Shown: positions 8,840-53,823 of the stretch, in pieces
Layout: each line of letters begins with the position of its first letter
Position numbering within the stretch: the first letter of the stretch is position 1
From: an uncultured Candidatus Rokubacteria bacterium
GTDB lineage: Bacteria; Methylomirabilota; Methylomirabilia; Rokubacteriales; CSP1-6
Length of the DNA stretch: 64,000 nt
Assembly (NCBI GenBank): GCA_963762145.1
Contig: CAVXJS010000008.1
Location: 32,001-96,000 of the forward strand
Reading direction: 5' to 3'
Position numbers and translations under genes: made by a program
The notes under the pieces: model-generated
Databases searched by the model: none
The model's input: only the letters and a program-made list of their open reading frames with translations
Told to the model about the DNA's origin: nothing

Positions 8840-8864
8840 CCTCCTCACGAAAGGCTGGCCTGCC

Positions 8865-9698: not shown

Positions 9699-9712
9699 GC
9701 AAGGAGATCACG

Positions 9713-10648: not shown

Positions 10649-10708
10649 GCCTCCAGGTAGGCTGCCCTGCAGGTAGGCTGAGGGCCGGGGCCGAGGCATA
10701 CTGAGCTC

Positions 10709-17027: not shown

Positions 17028-17973
17028 TCAGCGATGCCGGATCCGCGGGTCGATCCAGCCGTAGAGCAGGTCGACCATCAGGTTGCTCAGGATGAAGCCC
17101 ACCGCGATCAGCAGCACCACGCCCTGCACCAGCGGGTAGTCGCGCGCGAACACCGCGTCCACCACCAGGCGTCCCACGCCGGGCAGCGCGAACACGTACT
17201 CGGTGATGACCGCGCCGCCGATCAGGGTGCCGAGCTGCAGGCCGAGCACGGTGACCACCGGGATCAGCGCGTTCTTGAGCGCGTGCCGCCGGATCACCGC
17301 GCCGTCCGAGAGGCCCTTGGCGCGCGCGGTGCGGACGTAGTCCTCGGAGAGCGCCTCGAGCATGCTCGAGCGCAGCGTGCGCGTGATCACCGCGGCCAGG
17401 GCCAGGCCGAGCGTGATCGCGGGCAGCGCGAGCGAGCGAATCCCGTCCCAGGGCTCCTCCATCGGATCCACGTAGCCCGAGATCGGCAGCCAGCGGAGGG
17501 TGACGCCGAAGAGGAAGATCAGCAGCAGCGCGATCAGGAAGTTCGGCATGCAGATGCCGAAGAGGGCGAACGAGGTGCCGAAGCGGTCGAGCGGCGAGTT
17601 GCGGCGCGCCGCCGAGAGGATGCCGATCGGGATGGCCACCAGCAGCGAGATGGCCATCGCGAAGCCCGGCGAGCTGAAGGCTCGGCTTGATGCGCCGGCC
17701 CACGTTCTCGATCACCGGCTCCTGATTGCGGATGGACCGGCCGAGGTCGCCCTGGAGCAGGCGCCCCATCCACGTCGCGTACTGCAGGTAGAGCGGCCGG
17801 TCGAGGCCCAGGTCGCTCCGGAGCTGCCGCTTGACGCTGTCGTCTACCGACTCCGCCATCATCGCGTCGATCGGGTCGCCGGGCGTGAGGTGGATGAGCG
17901 CGAAGACCCCCGCGGTGACCAGCAGCAGCACCGGGATCGTCGCGAGCAGCCGGCGGAGGATCAGCAGGCCCAC
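17028..17973 (-). CDS. Peptide/nickel ABC transporter permease (DppB/OppB-like), one apparent frameshift near 17670
   Basis: PGDPID..GLDRPLYLQY in ORF 16912..17973 joins DYVRTARAKGL, RDYPLVQG in ORF 17028..17657. Confidence 0.88.
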
Positions 17974-17980
17974 CGCCGGG

Positions 17981-19562
17981 CTACTTCAGCCAGACGTCCT
18001 TGAAGCGCATCATGCCGTCCGGGATCGGGTCGTAGCCCTGCACCCGCGGGCTGAAGGCCTTGGGCTCGATCGGGTGGACGATGAAGATCATCGGCAGCTC
18101 GTCCTGCAGGATGCGCACGAGCTGGCTGAAGAGCTTCTTGCGCTCGGCCTGGCTCGAGAGCTCGCGCGACTTGTCGAGCAGGGCGTCGATCTGCGGGTTC
18201 GAGATGCCCGACCAGTTGAGCGAGGTGCCCGGCGTGGTCTTGATAGAACTGGTAGGTGTTGCCGTCGGGATCCGGCCGGCCGCTCCACTGGTAGCTGACC
18301 ATCTCGAAGTTCTTGCCGTTGCCGTCCGAGAGCAGCGTGGCCGAGTCCACCAGCTTGATCTTCATGGTGATCCCGGCCTCCGCGAGCTGGGCCTGGATCA
18401 CCTCGGCCTCCTGGACGTTGATCGGGATGTTGTTGGTGGTGACCGTGAAGGTGAAGCCGCCGGGCTTGCCGCCCTCCGCGAGCTTGGCCTTGGCCTTCGC
18501 GAGGTCGCGCTTGATGAACGGAATCGAGCGGTCGTAGGCCCAGCTCGTCGGCGGGATCGGCCCGTTGGCGGGCACGCCCACGTTGAGCCACACGCCCTTG
18601 ACGATCTGCTCGAGGTCGAGCGAGTAGGCCACCGCCTGACGGAGCGGCCTTGTTGTCGAACGGCGGCTTGGTGTGGTTGAGCTGGTAGGCGAAGTCGGCG
18701 AGCGACGGCACGTCGAGTACCACCACGTTCCGGTCGGCCTTCACGGCGGCCACGTCGCGCGGCTGCGACGTAGTCCATCACGTGGATCTCGCCCGCCTGG
18801 AGGCTCTGCAGCTTGACGGTGTCGTCCGGGATGGGCCGGTAGCGGATCTGCTCGAGGTAGGGCCCGCCCTGCTTGTTCCAGTAGTTGTCGTTCGCGTCGG
18901 ATGATGAGCCGGTCGTCCTTCACCCACTCCACGAACACGAAGGGCCCGGTGCCCGCGCCCCGGGCGTTGCGCTCGAGCTCGGCCCCCCGCTCCTGCGCCG
19001 TCTTGGGCGAGACCATCATGCCCGCGCGGTCGGTCAGAGTGGCGAGCAGCGCCGCGTCGGGCCGCTTCAGGTTCAGCCGCACCGTGTAGTCGTCCACCAC
19101 GTCCACCGTGTCGATGCTCGCCGTCTCACCCTTGCGCACCGACTTGGGCTCGGTCTTCATGCGGTTGAAGTTCCACTTCACCACCTCGGCGTTGAAGTCG
19201 GTCCCGTCGTGGAACTTCACCCCGCGGCGCAGCTTGAAGATGAGGGTCTTGGGGTCGGGCTGCTGCCAGGACTCGGCGAGCCCCGGCTTGATGCCGAGGT
19301 TGGCGTCGAGCACCACGAGCGGCTCGTAGATGTTGTGGTAGACCTGCCGGTCGATCTTGCTCCCCGACAGATGCGGGTCCATGGTGGCCGCCTCGACGTA
19401 GAAGCCGACGCGCAGGGTGCCGCCCTTCTTGGGGGTCTCCTGGGCCCACGCCCGCCCGGCGGCGCCGGGCGCGAGCGCGCTCGTCGCCCCCGCGAGCGCG
19501 GCGAGCCGGAGAAAGTCACGGCGAGATTCCGAGTGGGTCGCGTCGGGCTGCCTGGCCGCCAT
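17981..19562 (-). CDS. Family-5 ABC substrate-binding protein with Tat signal, several apparent frameshifts
   Basis: SRRDFLRLA Tat motif; PGLAESW, LRRGVKFHDGTDFNA, GTGPF; pieces in ORFs 18741, 18088 and 17961; SD AGGAGG. Confidence 0.88.
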
Positions 19563-19575
19563 ACCGTGTCCTCCT

Positions 19576-19630
19576 GAAGAGTGGGCCGAAGAGTGGGCTG
19601 AAGAGTGGGCCGAAGAGTGGGCCGAAGAGT
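19576..19630. repeat. 12-bp tandem repeat (GAAGAGTGGGCY x 4.6)
   Basis: Units start at 19576, 19588, 19600, 19612, with a partial unit at 19624; intergenic. Confidence 0.95.
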
Positions 19631-19645
19631 CGGTTGTCGGGTCGC

Positions 19646-20800
19646 CTACAGCCGGCTCTCGTCGATCTTGAGGCCGAGCCAGTGGCGGCCGACGAGCTCG
19701 TAGTGGGCCAGCCGGGCCTGCAGGTGCTGGCTCATCACGTGGACGTCCTGGAAATGGCGCTGGATCGGGCTCGACTCGTAGGCCGCGGTGGCGCCCGCCA
19801 TGTTGTAGACCATGTCCACCACCGAGACCGCGGTGCGGATGCCGTCGGTGGTGGCCAGGCGCAGCACCGCGCGCTGCTCGAGCGTGACCGCCCCGTGGGT
19901 GACCACCGCGTCCCAGATCCCGCCCACCGCCTCCCGGAGAAAGGCGAGGCCCGACCGCACCCGTGCCTCGGCGCGGCCCACCTCGTTCTGGATCATCGGC
20001 TGGTCGCGCAGCAGCGCGTCCATGGCCCGCGGGGTCTTGGTGGTGGCCAGCTCCATGAACGCGTCCAGGCAGCTCCGGGCGGTGCCGAGCGCCACCGCCG
20101 CGTCCCCGGAGGCGAAGACCAGCGTGCGCGGCAGCCGGTAGAGCGGGCCCGGCTCGACCAGCGGCGCGGTCACCGACTTCACCGTCCGGTCCTCGGGCAC
20201 GAACACGTCGTCCACCTGGAAGTGGTTCGTGCCGGTGCCGCGCATGCCGCGGACCTGCCAGGTGTCGAGGATCTGGGCCTCCGCGCGCGGCACGAAGCAG
20301 TAGCGCATCTCGGGCTGGCCGTCGTCGAGCCGGGGGCGGCCCTGCTCGGTGACGGTGGTGTGGGCGGCCAGCCACGAGGCGTGCCGGCTGCCGGTGCTGA
20401 AGCCCTGGCGGCCGGTGACCCGGTAGCCGCCCGGCACCACGATGGCCTGCGCGCTGGCCTGCGGCGTGTTGGCCACCACGCTGCGCGGGGTGTCGATCCA
20501 GATGGCCCGCGCGGCCGAGGGCTCCATTCGCGCCGCGTAGGTCGCGAAGACCGAGACCTGGTTGGTCACCCATGCGGTGCTCGCGTCGGCCCGCCCGAGC
20601 TCCTCGATCACCTGGATGTAGCTCGGCAGGTCCATCTCGAAGCCGCCGAGCGTCCGCGGCAACACGAGCCGGAAGAGGCCCGCGTCGGCCATCGCCTCGA
20701 AGAGCGGACGCGGCAGCTCGCGCAGCGCGTCCGTCTCCGGGGCCGACGACCGGATCAGCGGCGCGAGCTTCCGCGCCGTCTCGAGCGGCGACGGGGTCAC
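19646..20800 (-). CDS. Acyl-CoA-dehydrogenase-fold flavin-dependent hydroxylase (HsaA/C2-like)
   Basis: LGRADASTAW, FSTGSRHASW, WQVRGMRGTGT, IQRHFQDVH; GTG start overlaps the upstream stop. Confidence 0.88.
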   Translation of the reverse strand: MTPSPLETARKLAPLIRSSAPETDALRELPRPLFEAMADAGLFRLVLPRTLGGFEMDLPSYIQVIEELGRADASTAWVTNQVSVFATYAARMEPSAARAIWIDTPRSVVANTPQASAQAIVVPGGYRVTGRQGFSTGSRHASWLAAHTTVTEQGRPRLDDGQPEMRYCFVPRAEAQILDTWQVRGMRGTGTNHFQVDDVFVPEDRTVKSVTAPLVEPGPLYRLPRTLVFASGDAAVALGTARSCLDAFMELATTKTPRAMDALLRDQPMIQNEVGRAEARVRSGLAFLREAVGGIWDAVVTHGAVTLEQRAVLRLATTDGIRTAVSVVDMVYNMAGATAAYESSPIQRHFQDVHVMSQHLQARLAHYELVGRHWLGLKIDESRL

Positions 20801-23373: not shown

Positions 23374-24652
23374 ATGGCACTGCACATCGAAGTCATCTGC
23401 ACGGGGGACGAGGTGCTGACCGGCAAGATCGTCAACACCAACTTCAGCTACATCACCCAGAAGCTGGAGGACGTCGGGCTCTCCGTGCAGTGGGAGACCA
23501 CGGTCGGCGACGACCGGGAGAACCTGCTGCGGGCCTTCCAGCTCGCGGGCGAGCGCGCGGACGCGGTCATCGTCAACGGCGGCCTCGGGCCCACCGTGGA
23601 CGATCTCTCGCAGGAGATCGCGGCCAAGGCGGCCGGGGTCGAGCTCGCGCTGAACGAGGACTGGCTCAAGCGCATGGAGGACTTCTTCCAGCGCCGCAGC
23701 CGGGTGATGCCGCCCAACAACCGCAAGCAGGCCATGCTACCGACCACCTCAGAGGTCATCGACAACCCGATCGGCACCGCGTGCGGCTTCGCGGTGGACA
23801 TCGGCCGGGCGCGCTTCTACTTCACGCCCGGCGTCCCGCGGGAGCTGCGGCGCATGCTGGAGGAGCAGATCGTGCCGCGCCTGCTCGCCAAGGCCGGCCT
23901 GCCCGGGGCCATCTTCCTCAAGCGCTTCCACTCCTACGGGCTCGGCGAGTCGCACGTGGACTCCCTCCTGGCCGGCGTGGAGGACCTCGTGCCGGACGGC
24001 AGCGTGAAGCTCGGCTTCCGCGCCCACTACCCGCAGCTCGAGACCAAGCTGACCGCGCGCGGCCGCGACATGGACGACATCCGCCGCAAGCTCGAGCCGG
24101 TGGAGCGCGAGGTGCGCAAGCGCGTCGGCAACTTCATCCTGGGCGAGGACGACCAGACCCTCGAGGGCGTCATCCTGAAAGAGCTCCAGGGCCAGGCGGG
24201 CACGCTCTCGCTGGTCGAGACGTTCACGAGCGGACAGATGGCCGCGCGGCTCGCCCACCTGCCCGGCGCCGACGCGGTGTTCCGGCGCGGCGTCATCGCG
24301 CGCGCCCTGCCCGAGGTGTGGGCCGCGGTCGGGCTCACCGGCCCCGCGCCGGACGGCCCGCTGACCCCGACAGGTCGCGGAGACGGTGGCACGCGCGGCG
24401 CGGAGCCAGACCGGCGCCACCCACGCCCTCGCGGTGCTGATCGATCTCGACGACGGCCCCGACCGGATCGAGTTCGGCGGCACCATCTGCCTCGCGATCG
24501 CCACCGCGGGCGACGTGGCCTCGCGCAAGGCCCGCATCCTGGGCGGGCGCGACTGGGTGCGCCTCGGCGCGGTCGAGATGGGGCTCGACTGCCTGCGCCG
24601 CTACCTGCAGAAGCTGCCCGTGTACGAGCGGATCGACTTCGAGAAGACGTAG
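23374..24652 (+). CDS. cinA: CinA family protein (MoCF-binding domain plus degenerate PncC domain), frameshift near 24375
   Basis: CTGDEVLTGKIVNTN, VGDD, GGLGPTVDDLS, PGVPRE; C-terminal part in ORF 24386..24652. Confidence 0.85.
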
Positions 24653-24663
24653 GAGGCTCCCTC

Positions 24664-25499
24664 ATGAAGACCCCGGTGGAGAAGGCGGCCGCCTTCCGCG
24701 CGCTGCACGAGCGGCCCGGCGCCTTCGTGATCCCGAACCCCTGGGACGCGGGTACCGCGCGGCTCCTCGCCTCGCTCGGCTTCGAGGCCCTCGCCACCAC
24801 CAGCCTCGGGCTCGCCAACTCGCTCGGGCGGCGTGGACGGCACCAACGGGGTGAGCCGCGCCCAGGTGATCGAGAACTGCCGGGTGATCGCGGCGGCGAC
24901 CGACCTGCCGGTGAACGCGGACCTGGAGAACGGCTACGCCCACGAGCCGCGCGCCGCGGCCGAGATCATCCGGCTCGCCGCGGCGGCCGGCATCTCGGGC
25001 GGCTCGATCGAGGACGCCACCGGCGAGCCCGAGAAGCCGATCTACGACTTCCATCTCGCGGTCGAGCGCGTGCAGGCCGCGGTCGAGGTGGCGCGCGCCC
25101 TGCCCGTGCCCTTCATGCTGACCGCGCGCGCCGAGAACCTCCTGCACGGGCGCCTCGATCTCGACGACACCATCCGGCGCCTGCAGGCCTTCGAGAAGGC
25201 GGGCGCCGACGTGCTCTATGCGCCCGGCGTGCCGGGACCTCGCCACCATCCGCACCGTGGTGTCGGCGGTGAGCAAGCCGGTCAACGTGGTGATGAGCGC
25301 GGCGGATCCCGATCTCACGGTGGCCCAGCTCGCCGGCGTCGGCGTGAAGCGCATCAGCGTGGGCGGCGCGCTCTCCCGCCTGGCCCTGGCCGCCTTCATG
25401 AAGGGCGCCCGCGAGATGGCGGAGCGCGGCGGCTTCACCTGGATGCGCGACACCGTGCCGACCAAGGAGCTGAAGGACGTGTTCCGGAGGTGGCCGTAG
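24664..25499 (+). CDS. Isocitrate lyase/PEP mutase family protein, two apparent frameshifts
   Basis: PNPWDAGTAR, ATTS, PVNADLENGY, SIED, LTARAEN, GADVLYAPG, KRISVGG. Confidence 0.88.
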
Positions 25500-25503
25500 G
25501 CCC

Positions 25504-26376
25504 ATGATGCCGATCACGGTCACCTGCCTCACGCCCGCCTTCGCCGCGCGGATCGACGGCGTCGACATCAGCCGCCCGCTCGACGAGCCCAGTGGGCCGG
25601 CCATCCGCGCCGCCTTCGACGAGCACTCCGTGCTCCTCTTCCGCGGCGCCGCGCTGGACGACGAGACGCAGGTCGCCTTCAGCCTGCGCTTCGGCGCGCT
25701 CGAGGTGACCCGGAGCATGAACCCGGCCGCGGGCACGCCCTTCGCGCGCCAGTCGAACCTCGACATCAAGACCGGCGAGGTCATCCCCGCCGAGGACCGG
25801 CGGATGGTCTACCAGCTCGCCAACATGCTCTGGCACAGCGATAGCTCCTTCAAGCCGGTGCCCTCGCTCTGCTCGCTCCTCACCGGGCGGATCGTGCCGC
25901 CCGAGGGCGGCGCCACCGAGTTCGCGAGCGCGCGCGCCGCCTACCCTCGCTGCCGGAGGACCTGGAAGCGACGCGCGGAGGCACGCCGTCGCCGTCCACG
26001 ACTTCGCGTGGTCGCGCGACCAGGTCCGGCCGGGCTTCTTCACCGCCGAGGAGCGCGCCTGTACTCCCCGGTGCGCCACCGGCTCGTGCGCGCCAATCCG
26101 GTGAACGGCCGCCGCGCGCCCTCTTCCTGGGCGCGCACGCCTCCCACCTCGAGGGTCTGCCGATCGACGAGGGCCGCGCGCTCCTCCGGGGCCCGCTCGA
26201 TTACGTCACCCAGCCCGAGTTCTGTACCGGCACGAGTGGGAGGCGGGCGACCTCGTGGATCTGGGACAACCGCTGCGTGCTCCACCGCGCCACTCCGTAC
26301 GACACCGAGCGCCACCAGCGCCTCATGCAGCGGACCACCATCGTCGGGCGACCCCGCGGAGCCCGTGGCGCGATGA
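25504..26376 (+). CDS. TauD/TfdA family Fe(II)/2-oxoglutarate dioxygenase, frameshifted
   Basis: WHSDSSF (HxD), GGATEFA, WDNRCVLHRA (alternate frame). Confidence 0.85.
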   Translation: MMPITVTCLTPAFAARIDGVDISRPLDEPSGPAIRAAFDEHSVLLFRGAALDDETQVAFSLRFGALEVTRSMNPAAGTPFARQSNLDIKTGEVIPAEDRRMVYQLANMLWHSDSSFKPVPSLCSLLTGRIVPPEGGATEFASARAAYPRCRRTWKRRAEARRRRPRLRVVARPGPAGLLHRRGARLYSPVRHRLVRANPVNGRRAPSSWARTPPTSRVCRSTRAARSSGARSITSPSPSSVPARVGGGRPRGSGTTAACSTAPLRTTPSATSASCSGPPSSGDPAEPVAR

Positions 26377-29799: not shown

Positions 29800-31348
29800 A
29801 TGATCGCGTTCGCCCGTCGCTCCGGCCTCGCTACCCTGCTCGCCCTCCTGCTGGTTCTGCCCTCACCGCCCCGGCGGCGGCCGCGCCGGAGGGCACGATG
29901 ACGTGGGGCATCCACGTCACGCTGGCTCCCCGGTGGCTCGACCCGAGCGACACCGAGGCGTTCATCACGCCGTACATGGTGCTGTACGCCATCCACGACG
30001 CGCTGGTGAAGCCGATGCCCGGCGGGCGACAACACGCCGAGCCTGGCCGAGTCGTGGACGGTCGTCGAAGGATGGCCTCACCTACGAGTTCGTGCTCCGC
30101 AAGGGCGTGAAGTTCCAGAACGGCGACCCGGTCACCGCCGAGGACGTCAAGTTCTCCTTCGACCGCTACAAGGGCACCGCGGCCAAGCTGCTCAAGGACC
30201 GCGTGCGCGAGGTGCAGATCGTCGACGCCAGCCGCGTCCGCATTCACTTGAAGGAGCCGTGGCCGGACTTCATGACCTTCTACGGCACCTCGGCCACCGG
30301 CGCGGCGTGGATCGTGCCGAAGAAGTACGTGGAGCAGGTCGGCGAGGACGGCTTCAAGAAGGCGCCGATCGGCGCGGGGCCGTACAAGTTCGTGAGCACC
30401 AACCCCGGCGTGGACCTGGTCATGGAGGCGTGGGAGGGCTACTGGCGCAAGGTGCCGTCGGTGAAACGGCTGGTGTTCAAGAGCATGCCCGACGAGACGA
30501 CGCGCGCCGCCGCGCTCAAGGCGGGCGAGGTCGACATCGTGTACCTCTTGAGCGGGCCCACCGCGGCGGAGGTCAAGCGGACGCCGGGGCTGCGCCTCGC
30601 CGCGGCGGTGCCGCCGGGCGTGCCGTTCCTCGACCTGCCCGAGCAGTGGGACGCGAAGTCGCCGTGGCCGACCGGCGCGTGCGTCTGGCCGCGAGCTACG
30701 CCCTCGACCGCAAGGCGCTCAACGAGGCCGAGACGCTCGGCATGTCGCGGCCGACCGGTGGGCTCATCCCGCGCTCGCTCGAGTTCGCGAGGGTGTTCGA
30801 GCCGCCGGCCCACGATCCCGCGCGGGCCAAGAAGCTCCTCGCCGAGGCGGGCTACCCGAACGGGTTCGACGCCGGCGCGCTGACGCCGTTTCCTCCGTTC
30901 TTCTCGCTCGCCGAGGGCCTGGGCAACTACCTGCAGGCCGTCGGGCATCAAGACCCGGATGCGCACGATGGAGCGCGCGGCATTCCTCACCGAGTGGCGG
31001 GACAAGAAGCTCAAGAACGTGATCATGGGACTGGGCGCGCCCGCCGGCAACGCCGCGACGCGCATCGAGGCCTACGTGCTCAAGAACGGGATCTACGCCA
31101 ACGGCGTGGTGCCGGAGATCGAGGATCTCTACGCGCGGCAGGCGCGCGAGATCGACCGGAAGAAGCGCGAGGCGCTGGTGCACCAGATGCAGGACATCAT
31201 GCACGAGCGCGTGCTCCACGTGCCGATCTACGAGCTGGCCTTCCTGTGGGGCGTCGGCCCGCGGGTGGAGGAGGCGTGCGTGGACCACATCAAGGGCTTC
31301 TCGTACTCCGCGCCCTACGAGGACCTGAAGCTCAAGGCCCCGCGGTAA
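29800..31348 (+). CDS. Family-5 ABC substrate-binding protein, frameshifted; paralog of 42577..44127
   Basis: HDALVKPMPG, GDPVTAEDVKFSF, PWPDFMTFYGT, PIGAGPYKF, YEDLKLK. Confidence 0.88.
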
Positions 31349-31372
31349 ACCCGCTTCACAGGAGAGGTCCCC

Positions 31373-32213
31373 ATGGACATCGTCGACTCGCAGGTCCACA
31401 TCTGGGCCGCGGATACGCCGGAGCGGCCGTGGCCGGCGGGCCGCGCGGCCGAAGCGCAGAAGCCGTACCCGATCCGCAAGGAGACGCTGCTGTTCCAGAT
31501 GGACCTGGCCGGGGTGCGCCGCATGGTGCTGGTGCCGCCGTCCTGGGAGGGCGACCGCAACGACCTGGCGCTGGAGGCGGCGCGCACGTACCCCGACCGG
31601 TTCGCCGTCATGGGCCGCCTGGCGCTGCAGGACCCGGAGAGCCGCGCGCTGCGTGGCCGACTGGCGGAAGCAGCCGGGCATGCTCGGCATGCGCTTCACC
31701 TTCCACAACGAGCACAATCGCCACTTCCTCACCGACGGCACCGCCGACTGGCTGTGGCCGGCCGCGGAGAAGGCGGGCATCCCGCTGATGGTGCTGGTGC
31801 CGGGCGCGCTCGACCACCTCGACCGGATCGCCGAGCAGCATCCCGGCCTCAAGCTCGTGATCGATCACGTGGGCTCAGCCGTGCGCGGCAAGGCGCCAAG
31901 GTCTGGGACGAGCTGCCGAGGTCTGCGCGCTGGCCAAGCACCCGAACGTGGCGGTGAAGGCCTCGGGCATGCCGTCGCTGTCGAGCGAGCCCTACCCGTT
32001 CCCCGACCTGCACGACGACATCCGGCGGCTGTTGACGCCTTCGGGCCGCAGCGGACGTTCTGGGGGACCGACCTCACGCGCATGCCGTGCACCTACTACG
32101 AGTGCATCACGCTCTTCACCCAGCACCTGCCGTGGCTCAAGGGCGAGGACCTGGAGTAGGTGATGGGGCGCGGCGTCTGCGAGTGGCTCGGCTGGCCGCT
32201 CGCGCGCGCCTGA
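31373..32213 (+). CDS. Amidohydrolase_2 family protein; frameshifts plus in-frame TAG at 32157
   Basis: IVDSQVHIW, VPPSWEGDRND, IDHVG, FWGTDLTR; the frame continues after TAG as VMGRGVCEWLGW. Confidence 0.83.
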
Positions 32214-32224
32214 GGCCGGGCGCG

Positions 32225-33258
32225 ATGCGATTCGGCCTCTTCTTCCAGGCGCCGGAGCCGGCCGGCGAGACGCACGCCCAGCGCTTCACCGAGATGCTCG
32301 ACCTGTCGCGCTCGCCGACTCGCTCGGCTTCGACGTGGCCTGGCTCGCCGAGATCCACTTCGGCGGCGCGTTCTCGCTCCTCTCCACCCCGCTCATGGCG
32401 GTGCCCGTGATCGCCCAGCGCACCCGGCGCATCCGGGTCGGCACCGCGGTGACGCTGCTGCCGCTGCACCACCCGCTGACTGCGCGGAGCAGGCGGCGAC
32501 CGCCGACATCCTCTCGGGCGGGCGCCTCGAGTTCGGGGTGGGCCGCGGCTCCATCCCCACCCAGTTCCACGGCTTCCGGATCCCGTCTCGAGAACCGCGC
32601 GCGCTTCGACGAGGCCTCGACATCATCCGCCTGGCGTGGACGAAGGACCGCTTCAGCTACCGCGGGGCGTTCTGGGAGATCGACAACCTCTCGGTCGTGC
32701 CCAGGCCGCTCCAGCAGCCGCACCCGCCCATCCGGGTCGCCGTGCACACGAGGAGAGCTTCGCCCACATCGCGGACCGGGGCTGCCGATCTACTCGGGCA
32801 CGACGACCACGCCGCTGCCGCAGCTCCGGGAATGCATGGCGGTCTACCGGAGGCGGCTCGCCGCCGCCGGGCACACCTGGCGCGACGACCAGATGGCGCT
32901 GATGTTCCCGATGCACGTGGGGGCCACCGGCGGCGCCGCGCGCGACGCCATGCGGCCGGCGTGCTCCAGTACTACCGGAACATCCAGGCGATCTTCTCGG
33001 CTCCCGACTCCTCGCCGATCACCTGCCCCGCCTAAGACGTCCGAGGAGACCATCGCCAACCTGCCCTACGAGAAGTTCTGCCGCGACCAGGCGTCTTCGG
33101 CGAGCCGCGGAGGTGGTCGACCGCCTGCAGGCGGCGCGGGACGAGTTCGGGCTCTCCCAGATCATCGGCTGGTTCGACCAGGGGTCGCGCTCCCGCGCGG
33201 GGAGGTCGAGCGCACCATGCGCCGCTTCGCCGAGCAGGTGATGCCGAAGCTCGGCTGA
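32225..33258 (+). CDS. LLM-class flavin-dependent oxidoreductase, frameshifted
   Basis: MRFGLFF, WLAEIHF, IRVGTAVTLLPLHHP, FGVGRG, FAEQVMPKL. Confidence 0.83.
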
Positions 33259-33259
33259 T

Positions 33260-33294
33260 CCCTCTCCCCTTCGGGAGAGGGCAGGGAGAGGGGG
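33260..33294. repeat. REP-like palindrome, family B copy 1
   Basis: CCCTCTCCC-cttc-GGGAGAGGG followed by CAGGGAGAGGGG, between convergent genes. Confidence 0.8.
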
Positions 33295-34439
33295 CTACCG
33301 GCTGCCGGGGGTGACGCGGAGGAGGCGTCCGTTGCTGTCGTCGGTCAGCAGGTAGAGCGAGCCGTCCGGGCCCTGCGCGCACGTCGCGGATCCGCGCGCC
33401 GACGCTCCGCCAGGTAGCGCTCCTCGCCGCGCCACGCGGCCGTTCGTCGATCCGCAGCCGCACGAGCGCGCCCGGGCTGAGCGAGCCGACGAAGAGGTCG
33501 CCCTTCCAGTCGGCGAACGCGTCGCCCGTGTAGAACGTGGCGCCGGACGGGGCGATCACCGGATCCCAGTAGTACACGGGCTGCTCCATGCCCGCCTTCG
33601 CGGTGCCATCGCCGATACGCGCGCCCGAGTAGTCCACGCCGTAGGTGATGACCGGCCAGCCGTAGTTCTTCCCCGGCTGCGGGTTGTTGAGCTCGTCGCC
33701 GCCGCGCGCGCCGTGCTCGACCGTCCACAACTCGCCGCGTCGCGGTCGAGCGCCGCCGCCTGGACAGTTGCGGTGGCCGAGCGACCAGATCTCGGGCAGC
33801 GCGCCGGCGCGGCCCACGAACGGATTGTCGCGGGGCGCCGAGCCGTCCGGCGTTGATGCGCACGATCTTGCCGAGCGTGGTCGAGAGATCCTGCGCGCGC
33901 TCGCGCTGGGCGTAGCGGTCGCCGAGCGTGACGAAGAGCGTGCCGTCGCGCGCGGAAGACCAGGCGCGAGCCCCAGTGATTGGGCCCCTCCACCTTGGGC
34001 TGCTGGCGCCAGATCACCTGGGTGCCCTCGAGCCCGCGCTCGCCGAGCCGCCCGCGCGCCACCGCGGTGCCCGCGCCGCCCTGGCCCGGCTCCGAGAACG
34101 AGAGGTAGACGAGCTGGTCCTGCGCGAAGCCGGGGCTGAGCGCCACGTCGAGCAGCCCGCCCTGCCCGCGCGCGTAGACCTCGGGCACGCCGGTGAGCGG
34201 CTCGGAGAGCTGCCCGCCCGCGCTCACGATGCGCAGGCGCCCCGGCCGCTCGGTCACGAGGAAGCGCCCGTCGGGCAGGAGCTCCACGCCCCAGGGATGG
34301 TCGAGCCCGCGCGCGACGTCGGTGACCGTCGCGGCCAGCTTGACCGCGGCCGGCGTCGGCGAGCGCAGCGCCTCCTGCGCCAGCGCGGGCAGGACGAGGA
34401 GCGCGAGCGCCGTCAGGACGACCGCGAGCCGGGAGCGCA

Positions 34440-34440
<1 letters not shown>
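33295..34440 (-). CDS. PQQ-dependent sugar dehydrogenase (YliI/GSDH family), frameshifted
   Basis: GLDHPWG, VTERPGRL, GQGGLLDV, HWGSRL, GHRN, EHGARGGDELN, NYGWP, IAPSG. Confidence 0.88.
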
Positions 34441-35646
<1,206 letters not shown>

Positions 35647-35725
35647 TGAGTGCTTCCCTCCCGCGCCCATCATACATCTGCTATCTTCTCGGCAACCCCT
35701 CACCGACAGCAGGAAAGGACAGGCC

Positions 35726-37373
35726 ATGGCCACGATCACGGGATCGGAAGTGCTGGCGCAGGCGCTCAAGTCGCAGGGCGTGGACACGATGTTCTATCTG
35801 ATGGGCGGCCCGATGCTCGAGACCGAGGCGGCCTGCATCAAGCTCGGCATCCGCGCGATCGACACGCGCCACGAGCAGGCGGCGGCGATGGCGGCGCACG
35901 CCTGGACGCGCGTGACGCGGCGGCCCGGCGTGGCCATGGGCTGCTCGGGTCCCGGCGCCATCAACCTGGTCACCGGCGTGGCGAACGCCTTGACCGACTG
36001 CGCGCCGCTGGTCGCCATCGGCGGCTCGAGCCCGCGCGTGTTCCTCGGCATGGAGGCCTTCCAGGAGATCGACCAGGTCGCCCTGATGAAGCCCATCACC
36101 AAGTGGGCGGAGCGCATCTACGACGCCAGGCGCATTCCCGAGGTGGTCGACACCGCGTTCCGCCAGGCGACCAGCGGCCGGCCCGGCCCCGTGTACCTCG
36201 ACCTGCCCGGCGACGTCCTGGGCGAGAAGATCGAGGAGGAGCAGCTCCACTACCCCGGCCCCTGGCGCCCGGCGCCGCGCAGCCTCGGCGACCCGAACGC
36301 GGTGCGCGAGGCCATCGCGCTGCTGGCCAAGGCGGAGCGCCCGCTGGTCATCGCCGGCAGCGGCGTGTGGTGGTCGGACGGCGCGGCCGCGTTCCAGGCC
36401 TTCGTCGAGGCCACCGGCATCCCGTTCTACACGACGCCGATCTCGCGCGGCATCGTGCCGGAGGATCACGCGCTCGCGTTCCTGAACGCGCGCAGCAAGG
36501 CCTTCACCGAGGCCGACGTGGTGCTGGCGGTCGGCACGCGGTTCAACTAGGTGATCCAGTTCGGCCGGCCGCCGCGCTTCGCGGCCGACCTCAAGGTGAT
36601 CCAGGTCGACATCAACCCGACCGAGCTCGGCCACAACCGCCCGGTCGACGTGCCCATCGCGGGCGACGCGCGCGCGGTGCTCGAGCAGCTCCGCGCGGAG
36701 GCCAAGGGCAAGATCGACGCCCAAGCGCTACGCGGCCTGGACCGGCAAGCTCCGCACGCTCGACGCGGAGAAAGGCGCCGAGCTGGACAAGGCGATGTGC
36801 CGCGACGAGACGCCGATCCACCCGCTGCGGCTCTGCAAGGAGGTGCGCGACTTCATGCGGCGCGACGCCATCCTGGTCGTCGACGGCCAGGAGATCCTGA
36901 ACTTCGGCCGCCAGTCCATCCCGACCTTCGTGCCGGGCCACCGGCTGAACTCGGGCGCGTTCGGCACCATGGGCGTGGGCCTGCCCTTCGGCATCGGCGC
37001 GAAGGTGGCCAAGCCCGACGCGCAGGTGGTGGTGCTGCACGGCGACGGCTCGTACGGCATCAATGCCATGGAGATCGACACGGCGGTGCGGCACAAGATC
37101 CCGGTGCTGGTGGTGATCAGCAACAACGGCGGCTGGACCGCGGACGCCCCGTGGACCAGGCCCCTGCCCAAGCCCGGACGCAACCTCGGCTACACCCGCT
37201 ACGACCGCGTCGCCATGGAGCTGGGCGCGCACGGCGAGTTCGTGGAGAAGCCGCACGACATCCGCCCGGCGCTCGAGCGCGCGTTCGCCTCGGGCAAGCC
37301 GGCGGTGGTCAACGTCATCACCGATTCCAAGGCGCGCGCGACGACCGTGCGGTTCTCGGCGTACACGACATAG
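35726..37373 (+). CDS. Thiamine-diphosphate enzyme (oxalyl-CoA decarboxylase / 2-hydroxyacyl-CoA lyase-like); in-frame TAG at 36548 and frameshift near 36722
   Basis: RHEQAAAMAA, SGPGAINL, AFQEIDQ, GTMGVGLPF, GDGSYG...NNGGW ThDP motif; SD AGGA. Confidence 0.88.
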
Positions 37374-37388
37374 CGGAGGCCCTCGACC

Positions 37389-38586
37389 ATGGCCAAGGCC
37401 CTCGACGGGATTCGCGTCCTCGACCTGACCCAGTACGAAGCGGGACCGAGCTGCACCCAGATGCTGGCGTGGCTCGGGGCGGAGGTCATCAAGATCGAGC
37501 CGCCCACCGGCGAGCCCGGCCGCACCGCGCTGTCCGACAAGCGGGGCGAGGACGCGTGGTTCTTCCTGCTGCTCAACTCGTGCAAGAAGGGCGTCACCCT
37601 CAACCTGAAGTCCGAGCGCGGCCGCGCGATGTTCCTCGACCTGGTCAAGACCGCCGACGTGGTGGTCGAGAACATGGGCCCGGGCGCGATGGATCGCCTC
37701 GGCCTCGGCTGGGAGGCGCTCCACGCGCTCAACCCGCGGCTGATCGCGGCCTCGGTGAAGGGCTTCGGCGGCGGCGGGCCTTACGCCGACTACAAGAGCT
37801 TCGAGTGGATCGCGCAGGCCATGGCCGGCGCCATGAGCATGACCGGCTCGCCCGACGGCCCGCCCACCAAGGCCATCGGGGGTCTGGCCGACACCGGCGC
37901 GGGCCTGCACTACCGCGATCGGCATCCTGGCCGCCATCATCCAGCGCCAGGCCACCGGGGTGGGCCAGCAGGTCGAGGTTGCCCAGCAGGAGTCGGTGGT
38001 GAACCTCCTCCGCATCCACCTGCGCGAGAGCTACGCCACCGGCAAGCCGGCGCCGCGCCAGGGCAACCGCTCGGCGGCCGCCGCGCCGTCGAACATCTAC
38101 CGCTGCCAGCCCGGCGGGCCCAACGACTACGTGTTCATCCACTGCGCCACCGTGGACATGTGGAGGGCGCTGACCCGGATCGTCGGGCGGCCCGAGATGG
38201 GCGACGACCCGCGCTACCACGACCGGCGCGACCGCGTGCAGATCGTCGACGAGATCGACGCGATGATCGAGGCGTGGACCGAGAAGCGTACCAAGCTCGA
38301 GGTGATGGAGATCATGGCCGGCGCCGGCGTGCCGTGCGGCGCGGTGCTCGACTCCACCGAGATCCTGGCCGACCCGCACATGCGCAAGCGCCGCTTCATC
38401 GTCGATCTCGAGCACCCGCGCCGCGGCCCCTACCCGATGCCGGGCAACCCGGTGCGCCTCTCCGACTCCCCCACCGAGGTCGGCCGCTCGCCGCTCCTGG
38501 GCGAGCACAACGCCGACGTCTACGGCCGCCTGCTCGGCTACAAGCCCGAAGACGTCGACCAGCTGAAGCGCGACGGCATCATCTAA
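37389..38586 (+). CDS. Family III CoA-transferase (formyl-CoA transferase-like), frameshift near 37912
   Basis: [58 protein letters not shown]. Confidence 0.9.
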
Positions 38587-38676: not shown

Positions 38677-39612
38677 ATGAGCGACAACCACGCCGTAGTC
38701 GTCGATCCCGCAACCTCCGGCCGCCTGGTTCTCCGCCCGGTCCCCGACCCGACGCCCGACCGTGACGAAGCGATCGTCCGGGTGCGCGCGATCTCCCTGA
38801 ACCGCGGGGAGGTGCGCCGCTCGACCATGGCCGCCGCCGGCTGGCGCCCCGGCTGGGACCTGGCCGGCCACGTGGAGCGCGCGGCGGCCGACGGCAGCGG
38901 GCCCCAGGTCGGCGCGCGCGTGGTCGGGCTGCTGGCGGAAGGCGCCTGGGCCGAGCGCGTGGCCGTGCCCACCCACGCGCTCGCCGAGCTGCCCGAGAAG
39001 GTCACGTTCTCGCAGGCCGCCACCTTCCCGGTGGCCGGCCTCACCGCGCTGCACGCGCTCGGCAAGAACGGGCCGCTCCTCGCCCGTCGCGTGCTGGTGA
39101 CCGGCGCAACCGGTGGCGTCGGCGACTTCGCGGTGCAGCTCGCGCGCCTGGGCGGCGCGCACGTGACGGCCAGCGCCCGCCGCGCCGATCAGGTCCCCGC
39201 GCTGCGCCAGCTCGGCGCGCACGAGGTGACGGTGGGCGACGAGATCCCATCCTCGCCCAAGTACGATCTGATCGTCGAGTCGGTGGGCGGCCGCACCCTC
39301 GGCACCGCCCTCGCGGCGCTCCAGCGCGGCGGGGTCTGCGTCACCCTCGGCGTCTCCGCCTCCGCCGACGTCACCTTCGATGCCCGCACGTTCTTCGCCA
39401 CCGGCCGCACCACGCTCTACGGGCTCTATCTCTTCAGCGAGCTCGGCGCCGAGCCCGCGTCGGTCGGCCTGCGCCGCCTCGCCGACCTGGTGGCCGCGGG
39501 CCAGCTCGCGCCGCACATCAGCGTGGAGCGGCCCTGGACCGAGATCGCTCAGGTGGCGGCGGACCTGATCGCGCGCAAGTACCCGGGCAAGGCCGTCCTC
39601 ACGCTCGGCTGA
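38677..39612 (+). CDS. MDR-family (quinone oxidoreductase-like) dehydrogenase
   Basis: AISLNRGE, PGWDLAG, VAGLTA, VTGATGGVG, GKAVL. Confidence 0.9.
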   Translation: MSDNHAVVVDPATSGRLVLRPVPDPTPDRDEAIVRVRAISLNRGEVRRSTMAAAGWRPGWDLAGHVERAAADGSGPQVGARVVGLLAEGAWAERVAVPTHALAELPEKVTFSQAATFPVAGLTALHALGKNGPLLARRVLVTGATGGVGDFAVQLARLGGAHVTASARRADQVPALRQLGAHEVTVGDEIPSSPKYDLIVESVGGRTLGTALAALQRGGVCVTLGVSASADVTFDARTFFATGRTTLYGLYLFSELGAEPASVGLRRLADLVAAGQLAPHISVERPWTEIAQVAADLIARKYPGKAVLTLG

Positions 39613-39616
39613 GCCC

Positions 39617-40810
39617 GTGCCCAGACTCGACCGGCTGCCTCAGCTCAACCGGAACAACCTGCTGATGCTGCCGGTCCAGGTGAACGACACCGTCCCGTTC
39701 ACGACGCTCTCGAAGCCGCTGGCGGCCTGCCGGGTCGCGATCGTCACGACCGCGGGGCTCCACCGGCGCGACGACCGGCCATTCGGGCCCGGCGAGCAGA
39801 CCTACCGCGTGATCCCGGCCGATACGCCGCTCGCGGAGATCGTCCAGAGCCACACGAGCCTGGGCTTCGACCGCGTCCCGCAGATGCTCGACCCGAACAT
39901 CTCGTTCCCGGTGGACCGCCTGCGCGAGCTGATCGCGCGGGGCGAGCTGGGCGGGACGGCCCCGCATCACTACTCGTTCATGGGCGCGCAGCGGGATCTC
40001 AAGCGCATCCAGGAGGAGACCGGGCCCGAGGTGGGCCGCAAGCTCCGCGATGCGGGCGTGGAGGTGGCCCTCGTCACTCCCACCTGACCCTTCTGCACGC
40101 ACACCGGAGGTGTGCTGGCCCGCGCGCTCGAGAGCGAAGGCATCGCCACGACGTCCATCAGCATGGTGCGCGAGCACACCCAGAAGCTGAAGCCGCCGCG
40201 CGCGCTGTTCGTGCCGTTCCCCTTCGGTCACGCCCTGGGCCGGCCGAACGATCCGGATCTCCAGCACCGTGTGCTGCGCGCCGCGCTGGACCTGCTCGCC
40301 GAGCCGGCCGGCCCGGTGCTCTGCGACTTCTCCGACGACGCCGAGCCCGGCGATCAGCCGCCCGCGCCCGCCCAGGCCTCCGGCATCGCGGCCGCGGCCG
40401 ACGTGCCGGACGATCCCGCGCTCGAGACCGCGCAGATGCGCCAGTACCACGAGCAGTGGCTGGCCCGGAGCGGCGGGCGCACCGCCTTCGGGCTCTCCGG
40501 CGTCCCGGCCACCCGTTTCCGCGGTGTGGTGCGCTTCCTCCAGGCCTTCGCGGAGGGCGAGGACACCGACATGGAGGAGCGCCCGGCCACGGTCCCGCTG
40601 CCGGGCTTCATCCGCTACTGCGCGGACGACTGGAAGGCGCTCTACTTCGAGGCGCGCCTCGCGATGAAGCCGGGCGTCACCGGCGACGAGGTCGCGCGAT
40701 GGTTCTGGAGCGAGACGGCGGCGGGCCAGGTGCTGCGGCGCGTGGGCAAGCGGCTGGAGGCCTCGGAAGACGCGCGCTGGAAGGCGGCCGCGTTCGGGGT
40801 GGCGCGGTAG
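39617..40810 (+). CDS. Selenoprotein of the glycine/sarcosine/betaine/proline reductase B (GrdB/PrdB) family with C-terminal extension; Sec at TGA 40085-40087
   Basis: ORFs 39617..40087 and 40112..40810 are in frame; read-through gives VALVTPT-U-PFCTHTGGVLARALESEGIAT (UxxC); N-terminal RVAIVTTAG, DPNISFPVDRLREL, YSFMG; PPRALFVPFPFGHALG. Confidence 0.88.
40099..40115 (+). promoter_or_regulatory. Bacterial SECIS-like hairpin
   Basis: GCACACC-GGA-GGTGTGC perfect 7-bp stem beginning 11 nt after the UGA, G-led apical loop. Confidence 0.75.
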
Positions 40811-51856: not shown

Positions 51857-52842
51857 CTACTCGATCAGGTGATCCGCCCGCTGCAGGAGCGACGGCGGCA
51901 TCGTGAGACCGAGGGCTTTGGCGGTCCTCAGGTTGATGACCAGCTCATACTTCGCGGGCTGCTGGATGGGAAGATCGGCAGGCTTCGCGCCCTTGAGGAT
52001 CTTGTCCACATAGGCCGCGGCGTGGCGGGAGAGTTCGACGATACCGCTGCCGTATGACATCAGGCCGCCCACTTCCACGTGCTCGCGCACTCGTAGATCG
52101 CGGGCAAGCGGTACTTGGCGGCTCGCTCGACGATCTGCTTCCGGTCGCGAGTGAGGATGGGGCTCGGGAGGACAAAGAGCGCCTCGCTTCTCTCCGAAAC
52201 CATCCTCGCGAAGGCGCGGTCGTAGTCACTACCCTGAATCTCGACGACGACCAGCTTGACCCGCAGGGCTGACGCCGCCTTCTGCGCCTCCTGCAGCGAA
52301 TCCCCGCCGTGTCCACCGACAGCGAGGACCGCGAGCCGCGCGACCCCCGGGACCGCTTCCATGATCAACTCCAACCGTTTGCCGGCGAGCGCGGTCTCGC
52401 CAGCGGTTGTCACCCCGGTGATGTTCCCGCCTGGCCTTGAAAGGCTTGCCACCCATCCCCTCGCGACAGGATCGCCGCCAAAGATCATGACGATTGGGAC
52501 TGTTGCTGTCGTGTCTTTTGCGGCCTGAACGGCCGGCTCGCTCAAGGCGACGATGACGTCCACCTGGAGCCCCACCAGCTCGCGGGTGAGCTGGGGAAGC
52601 CGGTCGATTCGGCCATCCGCGAATCGTCGCTCGACGACGAGGTTTCGGCCGTCGACGTAGCCCAGCTCGCGCAGGGCCACGGGGACAAGGTTCGGTGCCG
52701 TGGCAACCGAGGGGTCTGGGACCCCGCCGGGCGAGAGGATGCCCACACGGGACACCTTCCCCGTCTGCTGCGCCTCGGCGGCGAGCGGCGAGTGGAGGAG
52801 CGCGCCCGCCGCCGCCGCGATGAAGGCCCGGCGGCCGATCAC
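51857..52842 (-). CDS. PF04392-type ABC substrate-binding protein, Tat-like signal, frameshift near 52090
   Basis: [52 protein letters not shown]. Confidence 0.9.
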
Positions 52843-53823
52843 TCGATCACCTGGTCCGCCCGCTGCAAGAGCGACGGCGGGATCGTCAGGCCGAGGGCCT
52901 TAGCGGTCTTGAGGTTCAGCACCAGCTCGAACTTCGTGGGCTGCTCGAGCGGAAGCTCGGCGGGTTTTGCGCCGCGCAGGATGCGGTCGACGTACACCGC
53001 GGCGCGCTGAAATCGATCCAGGCGGCCGGGACCGTAAGAGAGCAGCCCCCCTTCGTCCGGAAACTGCCGTTGCTCATAGAACGCAGGCAGGCGGTGGCGC
53101 TCCGCGAGCTCGACGACCCGTCGCGAGTCGCCGTGGAGCATCGGGTCCGACACCACGATCAACGCGTCGGTACCCAGCCGGGCCATCTTGTCGAATGCCC
53201 CCGCAAGGTCTCCCCCCTTGCGGACATCTACCACATGAGCCCGTACCGACAAGGGTCTTGAGGCCGCTTCGATGGCACGAACGACCGGCGGGGTCGTGGG
53301 GTTCGCCAAGTTCGCGAGCACACCGATGATGTCCGCCTTGGGGAGGATCTCTCGAATGAGCTGAAGGCGTTTCCCACTCAGCTCCGGCGCGAAGCCCGAT
53401 ACCCCGGTTGACGTTGCCGCTCGGGCGCGCCAGGTCCGGCACCACGCCTGCACTCAGCGCATCCCCGAGCGTCTCGATGACGATAGGGATCGTACTTGTC
53501 GCCTGCATCGCTGCCTTGATGGCGGGCGCCGCGACCGCGAAGATCGCATCCGGCTTCCGGACAACCAGCTCGGTCGCCAGGGCCGGAAGCCGATCGTACC
53601 GGTTGTCGGCATACCGAAAGTCCAGAGCCAGATTCTTGCCTTCGATCCACCCGAGCTCCGATAGACGCGCACGGAATGCCTTGAACGTTTCGGCGTCTGG
53701 AACGGCGGATCCAGCGACGAGGACACCCACCCGCGCGACTCTCCCGGACGGCTGAGGCTGAGCAGCGACCGGCGCGGCGAGGAAGCTTCCGGCCACCGTT
53801 CCAAGGAAGGTACGTCGGTCCAC
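52839..53823 (-). CDS. PF04392-type ABC substrate-binding protein, Tat-like signal, frameshift near 53410
   Basis: MDRRTFLG, ELGWIEGKN, LARPSGNV, GGLLSYG, YVDRILRGAKPAELP; 4-nt overlap with the next paralog. Confidence 0.9.

Follow-up and report, generated by a model that had tools for sequence, protein, structure and literature searches.

A two-domain, PrdB-homologous selenoprotein gene interrupted by an in-frame TGA in a Rokubacteria contig

A 64,000-nucleotide stretch of DNA from an uncultured Candidatus Rokubacteria bacterium (contig CAVXJS010000008.1, positions 32,001 to 96,000; hereafter the window) contains two open reading frames (ORFs), 39617..40087 (156 aa) and 40112..40810 (232 aa), that share a reading frame and are separated by a lone TGA at 40085-40087. 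The locus raises the question of whether these are two genes or a single gene in which the TGA is decoded as selenocysteine (Sec, U), and what kind of enzyme the joined protein, a relative of the D-proline reductase subunit PrdB, might be. Read-through of 39617-40810 yields 397 residues that include ...EVALVTPT-U-PFC-THTGGVLARALE..., with Sec at position 157 (U157) and a cysteine at position 160 (C160); the peptide beyond C160 starts THT, giving VALVTPT-U-PFC-THT. A first-pass annotation made from the sequence alone had proposed this read-through, and its elements were confirmed: the ORFs share one frame with a single TGA and a TPT-U-PFC junction, the GTG start lies 4 nt after the stop codon (TGA, 39610-12) of a gene for a medium-chain dehydrogenase/reductase (MDR), and a 7-bp hairpin with a GGA loop is present 11 nt past the TGA at 40099-40115. 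The start agrees with the MPRL... start of homologs, and the gene is free of frameshifts, with a GC content at third codon positions (GC3) of 0.94 along its whole length. When the 116 in-frame TGAs of the window with 60 or more open codons to either side were compared for coding-like GC3 and GC2 (second codon positions) on both sides, TGA 40085 ranked first. No other selenoprotein candidate was found in the 64-kb window; the runner-up, at 57264, is the normal stop codon of a gene followed by another in the same frame.

A scan of the GTDB representatives (one genome per species) returned 197 stretches with a relative of the gene, and the best 80 of the 197 were analyzed as loci; 79 of the 80 cover the TGA site, and L043 starts past it. 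By record title, the loci comprise Methylomirabilota/Rokubacteria (34), Chloroflexota (26), Tectimicrobiota/Entotheonella (6), Actinomycetota (6), Acidobacteriota (4), Binatia (2), Deferrimicrobiaceae (1) and one unclassified record. Alignment of the homologs for Cys/Sec alternation, a check suggested in the first-pass annotation, gave TGA at the Sec column in 76 of the 79 loci covering the site and TGC (Cys) in three: an Actinomycetota metagenome-assembled genome (MAG), Umezawaea sp. and Streptomyces sp. Five full-length database homologs of 394-399 aa have Cys in the Sec column and can be aligned over their whole length, including the C-terminal part; full-length Cys proteins are P0043, P0069, P0096, P0105, P0107, P0125 and P0135. 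Third codon positions dominate the substitutions before and after the TGA alike in 12 of 12 pairwise comparisons with relatives. TGA is still used as a stop, as the upstream MDR gene and three homologs of the selenoprotein gene end in it. In a quick maximum-likelihood tree (85 rows), the window gene nests among Methylomirabilota, and the ten Cys forms make up one group (SH-aLRT 80) beside Sec-form Actinomycetota. On this comparative evidence, TGA 40085 is a predicted selenocysteine codon, with both halves of the gene evolving as coding sequence.

The hairpin downstream of the TGA, GCACACC-GGA-GGTGTGC, is a perfect 7-bp stem that two outer G-C pairs lengthen to 40095-40119. Across 74 Sec forms, the helix is paired in 93.9% of cells, as against 22-56% when the partner columns are slid, and its covariation score was reached by none of 500 shuffles. 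The central pair (19-27) is A-U in 64 distinct rows, G-C in six, where both sides have changed in a compensatory manner, and G-U in one, and is never broken. RNAalifold, supplied with no structure, returned the same 5-bp core, which all 74 Sec forms keep intact; the first base of the loop is G in all 74, and in other lineages the loop reads GGC, GGT or GTN. Codons within the stem are frozen among 77 Sec forms (Cys160 TGC 77/77, His CAC 74/74, Gly GGT 46/48, Val GTG 77/77), with Thr ACG present in 65 of 76. The Gly codon whose third base falls in the loop is free (1.96 bits), and Gly and Val codons nearby but outside the stem show ordinary variation (1.2-1.7 bits). In all three Cys forms the stem is broken, though nearly the same peptide is encoded. 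These patterns indicate that the hairpin is under RNA-level selection as a putative selenocysteine insertion sequence (SECIS) element, in the TGA forms only. Bacterial SECIS elements, as outlined in PMC1088965, sit directly past the UGA and carry a G in a small apical loop; the position and loop of the hairpin agree with that outline. In one real prdB gene, a 7-bp hairpin starts 14 nt after the UGA.

We conclude that 39617-40810 is very probably one gene decoded through Sec, and the proposal that it is a genuine selenoprotein gene split by gene callers is borne out by the conserved TGA and by database entries that correspond to its halves. Among the best near-length public protein matches, 111 of 120 are the 232-aa downstream half, mostly named 'hypothetical protein', and 62 of 120 short matches are the 156-aa upstream half ending ...TPT. 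The upstream half is named 'D-proline reductase (dithiol) PrdB' at JGI and, in one NCBI entry, 'glycine/sarcosine/betaine reductase selenoprotein B family protein'. Sec forms were seen in the public sets as two fragments only. Sec decoding gains indirect support from selenoprotein-rich genomes in the lineages concerned: a Methylomirabilota MAG is credited with 63 predicted selenoprotein genes in a 2026 review (PMC13188914), and Dehalococcoidia MAGs with 46-49 selenoprotein genes are listed in BSepDB, as quoted in PMC13326102.

Among the relatives, six loci (L003, L006, L007, L011, L033 and L036) come from MAGs that bear the labels Deferrimicrobiaceae, Limnocylindria, Binatia, Micromonosporaceae or Acidoferrum, yet the tree nests their copies within the Rokubacteria clade, at 72-85% identity to the Rokubacteria gene; their placement reflects either mis-binned contigs or recent transfer. 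In L038 (10001-11192), a close relative with 88% identity in its best segment, the match is 1 base longer than the others and the tree branch is very long (0.98), likely owing to an assembly frameshift.

The N-terminal part of the protein is homologous to PrdB. TIGR04483 (PrdB), the best NCBIfam match, spans the TGA and covers residues 24-229 with 145.1 bits, against an equivalog cutoff of 300; six other family members score 113-157 bits with the same model. GrdB-type NCBIfam models give 32-47 bits, TIGR01918 (general selenoprotein-B subfamily) reaching 39.8 against a cutoff of 65.45, and Pfam GRDB (PF07355) covers residues 18-156 with 32.3 bits (gathering score 22), the model ending at the Sec. 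Because the scores fall below the curated NCBIfam cutoffs, the chemistry may differ from that of PrdB. By BLASTP, PrdB of Terrisporobacter petrolearius pTP2 (WP_228110000.1) is 34% identical over 204 residues (31-233; E 6e-39), and the alignment places U157 on U151 and C160 on C154, in agreement with the earlier proposal that the Sec and its UxxC motif lie where PrdB has them. Polar residues that are common to real PrdB and distant from the Sec (e.g., H49, D53, S78, D92, N94 and R101) are invariant. Sequence and profile searches of the PDB found no solved relative of PrdB or GrdB; only glutaredoxins were touched (1kte, 4rqr, 1jhb), over ~30 residues at V-x-x-x-(K/T)-P-T-C-P-x-C with E 0.15-0.6.

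Past the end of TIGR04483, ~168 residues, made up of a linker and a C-terminal domain (C-domain), contain GRTAFGLSG, YCADDWKALYFEA and WFWSET. The linker is variable and the C-domain is conserved in family alignments; the extra C-terminal domain noted at first pass is thus real. The C-domain has no match in Pfam, NCBIfam or the PDB. It is absent from real PrdB, and 25 plasmid PrdB-type records match only residues ~20-233. Comparison with real PrdA by hhalign gave probabilities of 0.4% for the C-domain and 0.2% for the whole family, and the C-domain is therefore no recognizable piece of PrdA. A C-domain profile matched 626 representative proteins at E<=1e-3, 206 of them at E<=1e-10; among the 150 matches listed, most either equal the post-TGA fragment in length (~230-250 aa) or are shorter pieces. 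Eleven sequences were inspected: P0125, P0135, P0203, P0212, P0228, P0250, P0201, P0219 and P0137 have the C-domain joined to the PrdB-like part, and the remaining P0130 and P0259 are not plain post-TGA fragments. In distant subfamilies among the matches, fragments begin directly after the active-site motif, and sister subfamilies have a conserved Cys near the position of a conserved Q-A-S patch in the linker. The third residue of this patch is Ser in ~78 of 84 family members, Thr in two, Gly in two and Lys in two. In P0201, a 361-aa fragment from a distant family member, a glutaredoxin domain (PF00462, E 2.9e-10) is fused after the C-domain, a hint at the physiological reductant. No fused forms of 696-2000 aa were found, which counts for little.

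In C. sticklandii, PrdB has Sec152 in a chain of 242 aa, and its operon encodes the pyruvoyl proprotein PrdA together with PrdC, PrdD, PrdE and PrdF, as summarized in PMC3091704. Pfam scans of the window found no member of the PrdA, GrdE or GrdA families among 56 + 82 ORFs. Gly_reductase (PrdA/GrdE), GRDA and PrdC-type families were likewise missing from 97 ORFs flanking the gene in the 80 loci and from 130 ORFs within 10 kb of it in seven loci of different lineages, and no PrdC, PrdD, PrdE or PrdF family turned up in the window and neighborhood scans. A tblastn search with real PrdA against the window and the 80 loci (1.42 Mb, within 10 kb of the gene) gave a best E of 0.93, whereas the positive control detected prdA upstream of prdB in its locus with E 6e-138. 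The statement that no PrdA or GrdE partner lies nearby therefore holds. In the canonical prd cluster of T. petrolearius pTP2, prdA is followed by a small ORF and prdB, with prdA ~400 nt upstream of prdB and selD at the edge. The control locus, on Peptoclostridium acidaminophilum plasmid EAL2_808p (L081:4648-5928), has directly upstream of prdB a prdA homolog that is 47% identical to pTP2 PrdA and is missing from the PLSDB gene table, which is known to have such gaps.

Comparison with known systems places the protein beside PrdB and outside it. Shared with PrdB are the homology over residues 31-233, the aligned Sec and Cys, and a hairpin after the UGA (14 nt in prdB, 11 nt here). The window protein differs in its 397 aa and extra domain (PrdB is a single-domain protein of ~241 aa), in its motif (U-P-x-C-T-H against U-G-T-C-H-R in PrdB), in a score half the equivalog cutoff, in having no adjacent prdA, prdC, prdD, prdE or prdF, and in its family's hosts, which are no Stickland fermenters. 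With GrdB, GrdF and GrdH (PF07355, TIGR01918) it shares a GRDB domain above the gathering score whose model ends at the Sec. In the comparison with GrdB (~435 aa), the C-terminal half alone is matched, the TIGR01918 score lies below its cutoff, no GrdA, GrdC or GrdE gene is nearby, and the UxxCxxC motif given for GrdB in PMC13188914 contrasts with U-P-F-C-T-H-T, which has no third Cys. A 302-aa protein of Roseomonas haemaphysalidis (WP_207415257.1, 'glycine/sarcosine/betaine reductase selenoprotein B family protein') is 35% identical over 209 residues, has C-P-x-C at the matching place (C-P-V-C) and no adjoining PrdA, but carries Cys for Sec, lacks the C-domain and adjoins selO. With glutaredoxins and thioltransferases (C-P-F/Y-C after a beta-strand), the family shares a local motif followed by a helix, in addition to the fusion in P0201, but the likeness spans ~30 residues and, at E 0.15-0.6, is not significant. 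In sum, this is a PrdB-homologous selenoprotein that falls outside both PrdB and GrdB by score, partners and architecture.

Sec-type PrdB homologs outside Stickland fermenters were already known, since surveys have listed them since 2005. PrdB (UxxC, pfam07355) is reported there with 42 Sargasso Sea sequences and, in Global Ocean Sampling data (GOS), with 235 Sec and 110 Cys forms, and PrdB selenoproteins are listed in Anaeromyxobacter and Geobacter (PMC1088965, PMC2398784, PMC1794560). The 'Proline reductase PrdB' of these marine surveys resembles the present family in being a UxxC selenoprotein with Cys homologs, from habitats or hosts without expected Stickland fermentation; as consulted, the three papers give counts, not architecture, and the comparison is by description only. 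The first-pass annotation had called the gene hidden, which is right in that gene callers split it and overstated in that PrdB UxxC selenoproteins are abundant in surveys of the oxic ocean (PMC1088965, PMC2398784). In the literature searched, supplements not being covered, we found no description of the two-domain form, of the missing PrdA or of a function. PrdB-type selenoproteins have been counted among the commonest of the oxic oceans since 2005, with function known for the clostridial proline reductase alone. The two-domain form is widespread, with 626 representative C-domain clusters and relatives in 197 species-level genomes. Such relatives are common in soil and marine bacteria, and the conserved TGA and hairpin provide a signature that could merge thousands of split gene calls. 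Because natural Cys versions exist in cultured actinobacteria (Streptomyces sp. CA-111067, Umezawaea sp.), the function can be tested by genetics and biochemistry without selenoprotein expression.

In the Stickland reductases, the pyruvoyl protein PrdA is responsible for binding the substrate. Since the PrdA pyruvoyl group is missing here, the substrate must be activated otherwise. The best explanation overall, which we regard as about evenly balanced, is a cytoplasmic two-domain selenoenzyme of 397 residues, of a Methylomirabilota (Rokubacteria) type, that runs a Sec/Cys cycle on a small organic substrate. UGA-157 would be decoded as Sec with the hairpin in the coding sequence, 11 nt downstream and with a G in its apical loop, serving as the signal. 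Sec157 would be the nucleophile and Cys160 the resolving thiol, with U-P-x-C at the start of a helix, and the C-domain may replace PrdA in substrate binding. The catalytic cycle, the reductant and the class of substrate are what we infer by homology: the selenolate would attack an electrophilic center of a small organic substrate, the adduct would be resolved by Cys160 to an Se-S bond, and this bond would be reduced by a dithiol protein of the thioredoxin or glutaredoxin kind. In the mechanism outlined for PrdB in PMC3091704 and PMC10298544, the attack of Sec on the substrate leaves an adduct that a Cys of PrdB converts into a selenide-sulfide, and this is reduced again by a thiol/selenol protein. 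By analogy, a Sec/Cys redox cycle with a thiol reductant is on balance probable. That the substrate is carbon-centered, a small organic electrophile rather than a peroxide, is put forward tentatively and with somewhat less than even confidence. The non-Stickland chemistry suggested at first pass is a plausible hypothesis.

Several observations weigh against this interpretation. The protein scores under every curated NCBIfam cutoff, the likeness to the glutaredoxin active site is not significant, and the glutaredoxin fusion is known from a single representative. No sel genes or tRNA genes were found in the 64-kb window, and no tRNA-Sec in the 60 loci scanned. Rfam returned no family, neither at gathering scores over the whole window nor at E<=10 over 39950-40300. 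The folding energy of the hairpin, in GC-rich DNA, is about that of shuffled sequence (z +0.6 and z +0.03), and for this reason the case for the hairpin rests on the relatives; the Sec reading goes beyond chance because of the comparative evidence (conservation, covariation and synonymous sites) and not because of hairpin energy. At least six genes in the window are broken. Because the assembly is indel-prone, a base error has to be allowed for when this sequence is taken by itself; the TGA is trusted because it is conserved in other genomes, not on the strength of this contig. Finally, the neighborhoods are variable, and the substrate is for that reason unreadable from context.

The foremost competitor, an unlikely but serious one, retains the same Sec/Cys cycle and exchanges the substrate for a peroxide or a disulfide, which would make the protein a thiol-dependent peroxidase or antioxidant enzyme of aerobes. 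The U-x-x-C after a beta-strand resembles that of glutaredoxins (weak matches), a housekeeping role would fit the variable neighborhoods, and surveys class PrdB as a thiol-based redox family that is abundant in the oxic surface ocean (PMC1088965, PMC2398784 and PMC1794560, by their descriptions). In addition, the reference list of PMC3091704 includes the title 'Peroxidase activity of selenoprotein GrdB', the title alone being the source. However, the invariant polar residues shared with PrdB and the conserved extra domain exceed the apparent needs of a peroxidase, and the gene is surrounded by a catabolic operon in three of three actinobacterial Cys forms. There the neighbors are an enolase-superfamily gene, DUF1330, the selenoprotein-family gene and an intradiol dioxygenase, an arrangement that resembles a cat-like ring-cleavage operon and offers a lead to the substrate.

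A bolder extension of the organic-substrate reading, which we consider improbable, is that aerobes have in this family a counterpart of the two-protein Stickland reductases in one self-contained chain, with the C-terminal part supplying the role of PrdA. This could occur in two ways. Cleavage at Q-A-S (Ser255) might leave an N-terminal pyruvoyl group on the C-domain, or the C-domain might bind substrates in which the alpha-carbon is activated by a carbonyl or thioester of the substrate itself. PrdA and GrdE form their pyruvoyl group from Cys. The Gly and Lys variants at the third residue of the Q-A-S patch weaken the case for self-processing to a pyruvoyl group. If either version were true, Sec157 would carry out reductive C-N, C-O or C-X cleavage of organic acids in oxic soils and oceans.

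The protein could also be an ordinary PrdB subunit whose PrdA-type pyruvoyl protein is encoded elsewhere in the genome, forming a Stickland-type reductase of D-proline or a related amino acid. PrdB is the best NCBIfam match, the Sec/Cys pair aligns at 34% identity, JGI names the fragments as PrdB, and the view of the genomes is limited to the window and to loci within 10 kb. We nevertheless judge this very improbable, given 145 bits against an equivalog cutoff of 300, no PrdA in the window or within 10 kb in the 80 loci when real prdA lies ~400 nt from prdB, no PrdC, PrdD, PrdE or PrdF family in the scans, and 168 residues that PrdB lacks.

The first-pass annotation had further suggested that the adjacent NAD(P)H-dependent MDR enzyme recycles the selenoenzyme. 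The 4-nt gap suggests co-translation, the pair is kept in six close relatives, and a second, unrelated MDR type lies upstream in eight Chloroflexota loci. In the window's clade, the MDR and selenoprotein genes are probably co-transcribed. However, an orthologous MDR is directly upstream in only six of the 80 loci, all of them close relatives, and within 10 kb in 10 of the 80. Relatives of 80-86% identity have other genes upstream (a CoA-transferase in L004; an MFS transporter in L020, L021 and L025). In the eight Chloroflexota loci, the upstream gene encodes a classical Zn-ADH-type MDR and a GNAT gene lies downstream; that MDR belongs to an unrelated subfamily with no detectable relationship to the window MDR (BLASTP E = 2). 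The sole fusion seen is to glutaredoxin, with no nucleotide-binding domain. The hydride acceptors of MDR enzymes are C=O or C=C and not Se-S bonds. Because this neighbor is confined to the window's own clade, MDR recycling is not supported, and a dedicated role as reductant is rated marginally below even the ordinary-PrdB explanation; the MDR and the selenoprotein possibly share a pathway within that clade.

That the TGA is instead a real stop between a separate 156-aa N-terminal fragment and a 232-aa protein starting at GTG 40112 is highly improbable. Gene callers annotate the locus in this way, and a GGAGG lies just 5' of the GTG, but at a distance of only 1 nt it is too near to act as a ribosome-binding site, nor is it conserved. 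The Cys forms are single proteins of 394-399 aa, the homology to PrdB would be cut in the middle of the active-site motif, and the RNA-level constraint on the hairpin is found in TGA forms only.

Reading the TGA as an error of sequencing or assembly, or the gene as a pseudogene, has some appeal in this error-prone contig, in that at least six window genes are broken by frameshifts or a stop, but is given a negligible chance, as 76 genomes that were assembled independently share this TGA and the gene has no frameshift and a GC3 of 0.94. The broken genes look like the product of an indel-prone assembly rather than natural decay. The gene for a thiamine pyrophosphate (TPP) enzyme is interrupted by an in-frame TAG (36548-50) and frameshifted near 36,850, a family III CoA-transferase gene is split near 37,900, the phosphoenolpyruvate (PEP) mutase gene is in three pieces and GSDH in two, and ABC_sub_bind and two SBP_bac_5 genes (17961-20573 and 29903-31788) are split. 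The selenoprotein and MDR genes are intact.

Table 1. Positions of the selenoprotein gene, its parts and neighboring features in the window
Feature	Position	Strand	Details
Complete selenoprotein gene	39617..40810	+	GTG start; 397 codons including one Sec codon; TAG stop 40808-40810
PrdB-like domain (residues 24-229)	39686..40303	+	TIGR04483, Pfam GRDB, BLASTP to real PrdB
TGA, predicted selenocysteine codon U157	40085..40087	+	TGA/TGC conservation, Cys homologs, alignment on U151 of PGAP-annotated PrdB
Cys160 codon TGC, presumed resolving Cys of U-P-F-C	40094..40096	+	Invariant in family alignment; C154 of PrdB aligned
SECIS-like hairpin	40095..40119	+	Stem 40099-40105/40109-40115; loop GGA 40106-40108; outer pairs 40095-96/40118-19
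Variable Pro/Ala-rich linker	40304..40399	+	Conserved Q-A-S patch (residues 253-255, nt 40373-40381)
Family-specific C-domain, residues 262-397 (~136 aa)	40400..40807	+	Motifs GRTxxG, DDLKAxYxE, WxWxxT
Upstream MDR (quinone-oxidoreductase/acrylyl-CoA-reductase-like)	38677..39612	+	Pfam ADH_zinc_N, ADH_N; 4-nt gap to GTG
TPP enzyme (oxalyl-CoA decarboxylase/2-hydroxyacyl-CoA lyase-like) and formyl-CoA-transferase-like gene	35627..38586	+	Both disrupted; intact in L006
Broken-gene regions	35627-38586, 17961-20573, 23374-25507, 29903-31788, 33032-35124, 52060-53823		

The selenoprotein gene closes a same-strand run consisting of the TPP enzyme, family III CoA-transferase and MDR genes. In locus L006, the MDR ortholog is 87% identical, and the TPP enzyme scores 449 bits with the acetolactate synthase model (cutoff 587), 390 with oxalyl-CoA decarboxylase (557) and 353 with 2-hydroxyacyl-CoA lyase (600); its CoA-transferase scores 432 bits with formyl-CoA transferase (cutoff 442). 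Elsewhere, the Entotheonella loci have a metallophosphoesterase gene that overlaps the start of the gene and an electron-transfer flavoprotein (ETF) gene downstream, and further loci have luciferase-like monooxygenases, Rieske oxygenases with xanthine-dehydrogenase-type subunits, or binding proteins. The most recurrent neighbors among the 80 loci by blastp are CoA-transferase III (17), TPP enzymes (15), luciferase-like proteins (14) and the enolase superfamily (13); in the window itself, CoA-transferase III is encoded twice and luciferase-like proteins several times. As these families are abundant paralogs with a high background, they are not read as specific partners or as enrichment. Clustering of neighbors, on a reduced ORF set, gave no cluster common to more than 13 loci.

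In the actinobacterial loci L037, L040 and L077 (~8200-12650), the gene is directly 3' of DUF1330. Dioxygenase_C is next in L037 and L077, and L040 has a blastp homolog of the Dioxygenase_C gene within the locus. Each of the three has a blastp homolog of the enolase superfamily (MR_MLE), confirmed by Pfam upstream of the gene in L077 only, where a LysR regulator and a CoA-transferase are also nearby. On Roseomonas plasmid p546-2 (L082:4866-7251), the 302-aa gene is tail to tail with selO (protein adenylyltransferase), 5 nt apart, and selO also occurs ~8 kb from the gene in L058. In L010 (5600-19250), a Terriglobia MAG, five or six DUF6152 paralogs are scattered around the selenoprotein gene, where genes for an intradiol dioxygenase and a dienelactone hydrolase also lie.

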